Assembly (NCBI RefSeq): GCF_030360185.1
Contig: NZ_JAUBOF010000017.1
Length of the DNA stretch: 32,000 bases
Reading direction: 5' to 3' (one strand)
Origin: Rhodococcus indonesiensis
GTDB taxonomy: Bacteria > Actinomycetota > Actinomycetes > Mycobacteriales > Mycobacteriaceae
Each line of letters begins with the position of its first letter. Position 1 is the stretch's first letter. Made by a program: the position numbers and the translations under genes. The notes beneath the pieces were generated by a model. That model made no database searches and was not told the origin of the DNA. It was given only the letters and a program-made list of their open reading frames with translations. Below, one piece after another: positions 26,693 through 28,456 of the stretch.

Positions 26693-27172
26693 ATGACCGT
26701 CGAAGAGCGACTGGCCCGGCTCGAGGCGCTCGAGGAGATCCGGATGCTCAAGCACCGGTACTTCCGCGCGTGCGACGCCAAGGACCCGGAGGGCATGCGC
26801 GACTGCTTCGTCGCCGAAGGCGCCGACATCTACTACGGCCCCGCACTGGGCAGCTTCGACGACGCCGACGGTCTCGTCGCCGTCTACGCCCGCCTCGCGC
26901 TCGAGCGCCTCGACGACCGGTACGTCATCCTCGACATGCACCACGGCATGCACCCGAGCATCGAGATCACCGGCGACGGCACCGCGACCGGAGCATGGAC
27001 CCTGCGGTTCCGGCAGGTGGACCTGCGGGCCCGCACCGAGCGGGTCAGCGCACTCGACTACGACGACGACTACGTCGTCGAGGACGGACGATGGAAGATC
27101 GCCCGGTGCCACGTGCGGGTGCACTGGTCCATCGAACGCCCACTGACCGACGACGTGAAAGTGGCGCATTAA
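26693..27172 (+). CDS. SnoaL-like / NTF2-fold family protein
   Basis: MTVEERLARLEALEEIRMLKHRYFRACDAKD is a typical SnoaL_4 N-terminus. C-terminal DDYVVEDGRWKIA. SD GGACGGAAGGGA lies upstream of ATG 26693. Confidence 0.8.
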   Translation: MTVEERLARLEALEEIRMLKHRYFRACDAKDPEGMRDCFVAEGADIYYGPALGSFDDADGLVAVYARLALERLDDRYVILDMHHGMHPSIEITGDGTATGAWTLRFRQVDLRARTERVSALDYDDDYVVEDGRWKIARCHVRVHWSIERPLTDDVKVAH

Positions 27173-27177
27173 CGCCT

Positions 27178-28434
27178 CTCCTTCCCGAAGGCAGGAGATT
27201 CCCGACTCAGACCGCAACCGCACCACCACCGGGAGGGAGGTGATCCGCTTGACTCACGTCGTCGACACCGGTGTGGCCACGCTCCGCCACAGCCAGAATC
27301 ACCCTGGCAGCGTTCCGGTCCCGGCACGCGGTATGCCCGCACGCCCGGCACCGGAAAACCCGTTCCTCGAGTCCGAGGGGTTGCTCGGCTCTCGCGAAAC
27401 ACCTCGAACACGTCATGGTCGTGTACGCGGGCCGCACCACCACCACCTTCCGGCCGGCCCGCCGGCCCCGCTCGAGCAACTCCCGTTTCACCGTCGCGAT
27501 CGCGGCATCGGCGGCCGTGCGCGCCATCGTCGACCTCGACAGGAACCGGGGTCGGAAATCCTCCACCGCGACCAGATGATGCGCCTCGACCACGGCCCTG
27601 GCCCAGATCCGGCCGTCGTGCCGGTTCTGTCGGGCCGCCTTCTTCTGCAGCTTCGCGGCCCGGGTGCGGGCCCGCCGATAGCCCCTCGAGGGTGGGTGCC
27701 CCGTGCCTCGGCGGCGCCGCGCCATCGTCCGCTGCGCTCTCGCCAACTCCGCCGCACACCGTTTCCGGTGCCCGTGCTGCGGCAGGTCGAACCGCTCCTC
27801 GGTGGCCGTCGCGGTGCGGGCCACGCCCCAGTCGATCCCGACCGCGCTGTTCGGGTCGGCGGCCGGGATCGGCTCCACCTCGCGGGTCACCACGAACGAG
27901 GCGTACCAGTGCCCCAGGCAATCGCGGGTGATGCGCACACTCGACGGCTCCGCCGGCAACACCCGCGACCACACCACCGGCACACGCACACCCTTGGGCA
28001 GCACCAGCCGGCCGTCGCGGATCCGGAACCCGCGGCGGGTGTACTCGAGCGACGGCAGGGTCTTCTTCCGCGCCTTGAACCGCGGCCGGCCCCGGCCCGG
28101 GGCCGTGAACGACGCGTCCAACGCCTGCGCGTAGGTACGCAGCATCTGCTGCTGGGCGACCTGGGAGCCGTCCCGCAACCACGACGAGCGGGCTCGGGCT
28201 TCGGTCAACTGTTTGCCGAGTGTCCCGAAACTCGGTGGGCGGCCCGTGGCGAACTGGTGGACGGCTTCGTTCCACAGGAACCGGCAGCGATGCCACTCGG
28301 CGATCAGGGCAGCCGCGGCGGTGGTGCCCGGCCGCAACCGGTAGTTGTAGCGCACCACCTCGACCCCCATGCCGGCACGCTAACCGACCCCACCGACAGG
28401 TTCGCCCGACACCACCACTCCCCCGAAAGGAGGA
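27178..28434 (-). mobile_element. IS200/IS605-superfamily element carrying tnpB only (IS1341-like, no tnpA); ends approximate
   Basis: Similar subterminal hairpins lie on the tnpB sense strand at both ends. The upstream one is TCCTCC-TTTC-GGGGGA (28419-28434). The downstream one is CTCCTGCC-TTCG-GGAAGGAG (27178-27197). There is no room for a tnpA gene between the flanking genes. Confidence 0.55.
27207..28370 (-). CDS. tnpB: TnpB (OrfB) RNA-guided endonuclease family protein
   Basis: RuvC triad appears intact: VGIDWGV (D), LVAVEDF (E), CRDRNAARVI (D). Zinc finger CSRC-N17-CRAC. N-terminus VVRYNYRLRP is typical of actinobacterial OrfB proteins. Confidence 0.9.
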   Translation of the reverse strand: MGVEVVRYNYRLRPGTTAAAALIAEWHRCRFLWNEAVHQFATGRPPSFGTLGKQLTEARARSSWLRDGSQVAQQQMLRTYAQALDASFTAPGRGRPRFKARKKTLPSLEYTRRGFRIRDGRLVLPKGVRVPVVWSRVLPAEPSSVRITRDCLGHWYASFVVTREVEPIPAADPNSAVGIDWGVARTATATEERFDLPQHGHRKRCAAELARAQRTMARRRRGTGHPPSRGYRRARTRAAKLQKKAARQNRHDGRIWARAVVEAHHLVAVEDFRPRFLSRSTMARTAADAAIATVKRELLERGRRAGRKVVVVRPAYTTMTCSRCFARAEQPLGLEERVFRCRACGHTACRDRNAARVILAVAERGHTGVDDVSQADHLPPGGGAVAV

Positions 28435-28456
28435 CGGCGCTTCCTCTCCCTCGTGA

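Follow-up and report, generated by a model that had tools for sequence, protein, structure and literature searches.

The 32,000-nt window analyzed here, from contig NZ_JAUBOF010000017.1 of the Rhodococcus indonesiensis assembly GCF_030360185.1 (contig C17 of genome G000 in our labeling), holds a small transposable element lodged between two plus-strand genes, one for a SnoaL-like protein and one for a short-chain dehydrogenase/reductase (SDR). The element lies on the minus strand and carries a single gene, tnpB. Its gene content, its ends, and its relatives in other genomes leave us in little doubt that this is a nonautonomous IS200/IS605-family transposon with tnpB only (the IS1341 group, or "IS605B" in Kapitonov's naming), probably stranded, and carrying a nuclease that is intact on paper, together with a predicted omega-RNA. 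It belongs to a known family, in which it is ordinary and well delimited, and it is no new kind of system. The features of the locus are collected in Table 1.

Table 1. Features of the tnpB element and its surroundings, in coordinates of the 32,000-nt window
Feature	Coordinates	Strand	Description
SnoaL-like gene	26534–27172	+	Pfam SnoaL_4; longest open reading frame listed, real start probably later
Predicted guide	27149–27168	-	20 nt (a 16-nt guide would reach 27153); flank immediately beyond the right-end tip, antisense to the last SnoaL codons
Element	27169–28483	-	1,315 bp
Right-end (RE) tip GGCGTTAA	27169–27176	-	Similarity of both own-genome copies and all family copies stops exactly here
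RE subterminal hairpin TCTCCTGCC-TTCG-GGAAGGAGA	27177–27198	-	Separated from the tip by 8 nt; a single G-A mismatch here
Predicted omega-RNA scaffold	27169–27470	-	Synonymous constraint from about 27470; covariation-supported helices 27308–27177
tnpB	27207–28370	-	387 aa, predicted RNA-guided nuclease; triad D180/E270/D351, zinc finger C321/C324/C341/C344
TnpB C-terminal tail	27207–27260	-	...HLPPGGGAVAV
Left end (LE)	28371–28483	-	113 nt between the target and the tnpB ATG, with CTGATG... at the tip; homology among about 20 copies begins here
Inner LE hairpin TCCTCC-TTTC-GGGGGA	28419–28434	-	−8.7 kcal/mol in this copy
Conserved subterminal LE hairpin	28446–28465	-	Consensus CTCCCTCG-TTCA-CGAGGGAG; 18 nt from the tip
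Target-adjacent motif (TAM) TCAT	28484–28487	-	On the tnpB-sense strand; complement of ATGA, the SDR start codon plus the first base of codon 2
SDR gene	28484–29338	+	Pfam adh_short; real start ATG 28484 (MTEDMTEDTTEHKVALVTGAS...)
SDR N-terminal repeat	28484–28519	+	12-nt tandem repeat (ATGACCGAAGAC)x2 + ACGACCGAACAC, encoding MTED-MTED-TTEH

The limits of the element were set from an alignment of copies and from empty sites, for both of which 60 relatives were searched. Same-genus copies are many and have the right tip in common, and the alignment of about 20 of them places the left tip at 28483. The flanks lie next to each other, as an empty site, in more than 10 congener genomes. An earlier sequence-only reading of the window had assigned the element to 27150–28440 and had proposed both comparisons. 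The element is indeed there, while its left tip lies 43 nt further out, leaving the conserved left hairpin outside that interval, and its right tip falls at 27169. A profile of the left end (nhmmer) matches the genome at one place only, the left end in the window. The second copy in the genome (L002; contig C137:10130-11150) is 96% identical, is truncated by the contig end, and has an in-frame TGA. The right-end hairpin of this second copy has a 4-nt deletion yet forms a perfect 7-bp stem (TCTCCTT-CTGG-AAGGAGA).

The features that define the IS1341/IS605B group are all found in the window. The single tnpB open reading frame encodes a protein with an OrfB_IS605 domain and a C-terminal zinc-ribbon (TNB) domain, subterminal hairpins occur at both ends in the absence of terminal inverted repeats, and a short specific target lies 5' of the element with no target-site duplication. 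An autonomous IS200/IS605 element would carry TnpA, whereas tnpB is the sole gene of this one. Because tnpA is absent from the element and the genome (99.99% complete by markers) gave no match to the Y1 TnpA family (PF01797), the element is nonautonomous, and the sequence-only reading was right that it cannot move by itself. The overall order is target, about 18 nt, hairpin, element body, hairpin, 8 nt, and tip, which is the layout of IS608 and ISDra2.

The TnpB protein scores above the cut-offs for both of its Pfam domains, OrfB_IS605 (PF01385, 45.4 bits) and Cas12f1-like_TNB (PF07282, 55.4 bits). Its closest solved structures are the ISDra2 TnpB chains 8BF8, 8EXA, and 8H1J (E 6e-24, residues 39–360), in which positions 191, 278, and 361, the catalytic residues of ISDra2 TnpB, align with D180, E270, and D351. 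The motifs around these residues, GIDWG, VAVEDF, and RDRNAA, are all present, which confirms the intact RuvC triad and the 387-aa length reported from the sequence alone; the zinc finger is also complete, although its spacer is N16 (CxxC-N16-CxxC) and not N17 as had been counted. Purifying selection acts across the TnpB family, as judged from a family-wide ratio of nonsynonymous to synonymous substitution (dN/dS) of about 0.3. A TnpB of this kind would be expected to cleave DNA in a TAM- and guide-dependent manner, with the TAM and the guide predicted here from the layout of the element. Domestication as a TldR, a nuclease-dead TnpB-like repressor, was considered and ruled out, given the intact RuvC triad and the presence of both transposon ends.

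Both ends carry a subterminal hairpin that is a property of the family. The conserved left-end hairpin folds in all copies at about −9 to −17 kcal/mol and shows compensatory variants, for example CTCCCCCG/CGGGGGAG. In the copy in the window it reads CTGCCTCA-TTCA-CGAGGGAG, with two mismatches, and it is weakened to −8.5 kcal/mol both here and in the R. ruber ortholog, against −10 to −17 kcal/mol elsewhere. The sequence-only reading had picked a different left-end hairpin, the inner one of Table 1; it is present in this copy and stays unfolded in L007, L008, L027, and L014 (0 to −1.8 kcal/mol), so it is not a conserved feature. The right-end hairpin, by contrast, was recognized correctly, including its UUCG loop and its position 9 nt past the tnpB stop codon. 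It is kept in all copies (−9 to −22 kcal/mol), and its inner stem covaries (TGCC/GGCA, CGGC/GCCG, CGCC/GGCG).

The target of the element is equally regular. TCAT lies directly 5' of the left end in every full copy from the genus, mostly as GGTCAT or GTCAT and sometimes as TTCAT, and CAT ends 46 of 48 left flanks in a wider set of 79 further Actinomycetes loci. CAT is also present in the empty sites, so it belongs to the target DNA and not to the element. A few loci depart from the motif: L066 has TTCAC, and its neighboring gene begins with GTG; at L015 the flank is GACAT, and the adjacent gene starts ATGTCC; and L033 (L033/L050) has no CAT and a degenerate left-end tip.

Comparison with the empty sites places the insert precisely at the border of the SnoaL-like and SDR genes, as the sequence-only reading had proposed, directly 3' of TCAT and without duplication in the stop/start junction of the pair. 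In the empty sites, the SnoaL stop codon and the SDR ATG overlap or lie no more than 4 nt apart (e.g., ...GTGCAGTGATGACA... and ...TTCTGACATGACC...), and the SDR begins MTE... at the homologous ATG. Since the ATGA at the SDR start is the complement of TCAT, the element directly abuts the start codon of the SDR gene, and the extension of the SDR open reading frame to 28457 is left-end sequence. At the other border the palindromic TTAA of the right-end tip, read on the plus strand as CA/T TAA, supplies the last base of a SnoaL His codon and the stop codon. By this alignment the SnoaL stop codon (27170–27172) is element DNA, and the SnoaL C terminus reads VKVAH* in this genome and VKVVF* or VEVVQ* in congeners. 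The right-end tip was ruled out as a general donor of stop codons, since TTGA variants (L008, L009) read TCAA on the other strand. The ancestral junction was probably ...GGTCAT/TGCGCC... (CAATGA on the gene strand).

A base-precise pair of occupied and empty alleles is available elsewhere in the genus. A copy on R. ruber contig C6 (...GTGTCAT / GTCGACC...) corresponds to contig C4 of the R. indonesiensis genome, where the flanks are contiguous at C4:61186/61185, with no duplication and no deletion. The flanks of this pair are 97% identical. At the TAM position, the empty allele reads CCAT where the occupied allele reads TCAT, and the gene starts MA... in the former and MT... in the latter. The empty allele therefore lacks the TAM, which could be chance or escape.

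Within the window, the first codons of the SDR gene form the tandem repeat listed in Table 1. Three units are present in R. indonesiensis and two in R. ruber (MTED-MTEH), so the copy number of the repeat varies beside the insertion point.

The predicted omega-RNA scaffold covers the 3' end of tnpB and the right end, as had been suggested from the sequence alone, and two kinds of comparative evidence argue strongly for it. The first is synonymous constraint: among 16 copies, identity at third codon positions across the last 264 nt of tnpB (27470–27207) is 0.94, 0.84, and 0.89, against 0.68–0.85 over the first 900 nt. The second is covariation. For 40 members of the family, drawn from Rhodococcus, Nocardia, Micromonosporaceae, and others, RNAalifold predicted 43 pairs, 21 of them with compensatory changes, and 95.4% of cells pair. 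Double-change cells number 185, against 61 ± 9 in shuffled alignments and 28–42 in controls with slid partners, and the covariation score is 0.415, against 0.228 for shuffles and 0.07–0.11 for slid controls. When RNAalifold was restricted to 17 closely related copies, only 2 covarying pairs were obtained because those copies are too similar; the wider family is needed. On the tnpB-sense strand, many pairs of the scaffold are G-U, as would be expected of a transcript of that strand more than of structured DNA. The codons for the C-terminal tail of TnpB lie in a covarying RNA helix whose loop is variable, so it seems to be the RNA structure, and not the protein, that dictates the tail.

By analogy with ISDra2 and the Geobacillus elements, the tnpB transcript would be processed into an omega-RNA whose scaffold is the last ~140–300 nt of the element and whose guide is the 16–20 nt of flank beyond it. 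The sequence-only reading had the direction and place of this guide right, antisense to the 3' end of the SnoaL gene, and put it at 27177–27155; with the tip fixed by the copies, the predicted guide moves to 27168–27149, and the stop codon becomes part of the element instead of the guide. TnpB with this omega-RNA would cut any allele in which TCAT is directly followed by the guide flank, which is to say the empty site. Cutting of the empty allele is proposed to lead to restoration or spread of the element by recombination, a cut-and-restore mechanism of the kind described in 10.1101/2023.03.14.532601. In the R. indonesiensis genome, the only 20/20 match to the guide is the element's own flank, which is preceded by GTTAA instead of TCAT, so there is no self-target; an incoming empty allele would be the one substrate for the nuclease.

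The insertion is an old one. Its ortholog in R. ruber NBRC 15591 (L006) occupies the identical site, so the insertion is older than the divergence of the two species. The element is 97.1% identical between them and the flank 95.3%. All 38 differences fall within element positions 382–1181, while the first 381 nt (28483–28103, comprising the left end and the 5' part of tnpB) are identical next to a flank that differs by 4.7%. This uneven distribution suggests constraint or gene conversion.

Several observations count against the reading proposed here. The two orthologous copies have a dN/dS of 0.63 with 21 amino acid changes, and the copy in the window has two mismatches in the left-end hairpin and one in the right-end hairpin; both fit relaxed selection. 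An Rfam 15 scan of 26500–29000 found no matching family, returning four chance-level matches (E 2–8) far under the gathering scores, and a sigma-70 promoter scan found no promoter-like site, although such a scan is uninformative in a high-GC actinomycete. The genome is a draft in 282 contigs that could hide a tnpA. At the junction itself, the nearest empty site (G023) differs by a few bases, and for this reason the ancestral junction given above is inferred and not observed.

Part of this evidence would also be expected of a dead relic, immobile since before the R. indonesiensis/R. ruber split, with TnpB and its RNA inert and the reading frame open merely for want of time. The dN/dS between the orthologs is well over the family-wide value, both end hairpins are weakened in the window copy and its ortholog, no Y1 TnpA was found in the genome, the second own-genome copy has its in-frame TGA, and, by our estimate, an open frame is weak evidence of selection given 38 substitutions. 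Against decay, the catalytic triad and the zinc finger are intact, all covarying scaffold helices can still form in the window copy, and the two species are identical over the first 381 nt and, at the other end, over the last ~110 nt compared, despite the divergence of the flank. We regard complete inertness as a serious minority explanation. The reading that we prefer, a stranded element, takes up much of the same evidence: given the mismatches in both end hairpins and the lack of a Y1 TnpA match in the genome, the element is probably stranded, with a nuclease and RNA that appear intact on paper and have no target in their own genome.

Help from elsewhere is conceivable within the genus. Y1 TnpA is present in 8 of 24 congeners, and autonomous IS605 elements with both tnpA and tnpB are found in other Rhodococcus (loci L034–L039). 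These share the genus with the element in the window and have end hairpins with CTCC-type stems and TTCA loops. They differ from it in having their own tnpA and a divergent tnpB, whose product is ~34% identical to the TnpB described here, and none occurs in the R. indonesiensis genome. A short-word BLAST of the element tips against the surroundings of congener Y1 tnpA genes gave noise, apart from hairpin-like matches of 13/14 nt. Given the similar end hairpins, L034–L039 are candidate helpers in trans. Mobilization in trans is thus possible within the genus, if unproven, and unlikely in this strain.

The position flush against a start codon is not peculiar to this locus. Read on the other strand, the left flanks of the copies begin ATGA and resemble gene starts (MT..., MK..., MS...). 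A site was scored as start-like if it opened 100 open codons with a G+C content at third positions (GC3) of at least 0.75 and GC3 minus the second-position value (GC2) of at least 0.2, with no such in-frame coding signal upstream. Among all 9,197 ATGA[C/A] sites in the R. indonesiensis genome, 15.7% are start-like, a share that rises to about 35%, by a crude estimate, for sites where no frame would be interrupted. Of 15 independent copies from the genus, 12 are start-like, with binomial probabilities of 6e-8 and 5e-4 under these two reference shares. Among the wider Actinomycetes loci, coding-like sequence follows 42 of the 46 flanks that end in CAT, and independent copies with both flanks known are start-like in 37 of 41 cases. 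Overall, about 90% of the copies in the family border on a start codon.

The empty site on contig C4 has a GGAAGG Shine-Dalgarno sequence 5 nt before the ATG, so the R. ruber C6 insertion splits the Shine-Dalgarno sequence from the start codon, and the copy persists. An outward-facing Shine-Dalgarno sequence in the left end was rejected as a general feature, as the subfamily in the window has GCGCC at that place; some Nocardia and Micromonosporaceae subfamilies have GGCGG 6–10 nt before the ATG. Tentatively, docking could be a property of TCAT/ATGA-targeting TnpB elements themselves, beyond what the survivors of selection would show, although we incline against this. Were it so, target capture might favor regions of translation initiation, or the left end might serve in place of the 5' region of the gene.

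A host side effect or exaptation at the locus in the window would go a step further, with the left end replacing the 5' region of the SDR gene or the guide-bearing RNA acting antisense to the 3' end of the SnoaL mRNA. The element does sit directly on the SDR ATG and uncouples the SDR from its former translational coupling with SnoaL, copies such as that on R. ruber C6 persist with most of the family docked likewise, and the guide is fully complementary to the SnoaL mRNA. That overlap, however, is automatic for an insertion in an ATGA junction. No Shine-Dalgarno or −10-like motif was read at a useful distance on the SDR strand of the left end, the sigma-70 scan found no promoter-like site, and the intact RuvC excludes a TldR-type repressor. 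A role for the host at this locus is, on balance, improbable.

Several known systems resemble the element. The TnpB of Deinococcus radiodurans ISDra2 is homologous, with an aligned D-E-D triad and zinc finger, and the two elements agree in an RNA scaffold, predicted in the present case, that extends over the 3' end of tnpB and into the right end, with the guide taken from the right flank and the TAM lying in the left one; for the scaffold, the likeness is one of position. ISDra2 has its own tnpA and uses TTGAT, whereas the element described here has no tnpA and uses TCAT. A closer match in gene content and target is IS605B-1_MA and its relatives (Kapitonov et al. 2016, PMC4810608), which are TnpB-only IS605-type elements inserted precisely beside ATGA, with empty sites that confirm the target; their hosts are Cyanobacteria and Proteobacteria rather than Actinomycetes, and the likeness rests on gene content and target. 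For the RNA, a solo IS1341-type tnpB of Halobacterium offers an archaeal parallel, since PMC4615843 describes an experimentally detected, sense-overlapping noncoding RNA at its 3' end. The equivalent region here has synonymous constraint and covariation, from which an RNA is predicted.

The locus thus provides an actinomycete TnpB with clear limits, for which a TAM (TCAT) and a guide can be predicted and whose predicted scaffold is backed by covariation. For annotation, it means that the SDR start should be placed at 28484 and not at 28457 and that the SnoaL stop codon is transposon-derived. The insert, 1.3 kb long, also interrupts a gene pair with translational coupling. For the family, the N/ATGA target of TnpB-only IS605B elements was published in 2016 from Microcystis, Halomonas, and Marinobacter (PMC4810608); that article makes no mention of start codons, and a literature search found no other paper linking such elements with them. 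The literature found gives the target motif and not the start-codon pattern, to which these Actinomycetes copies add an independent, quantified case, from a high-GC phylum, of ATGA-targeting TnpB-only elements docking on start codons.

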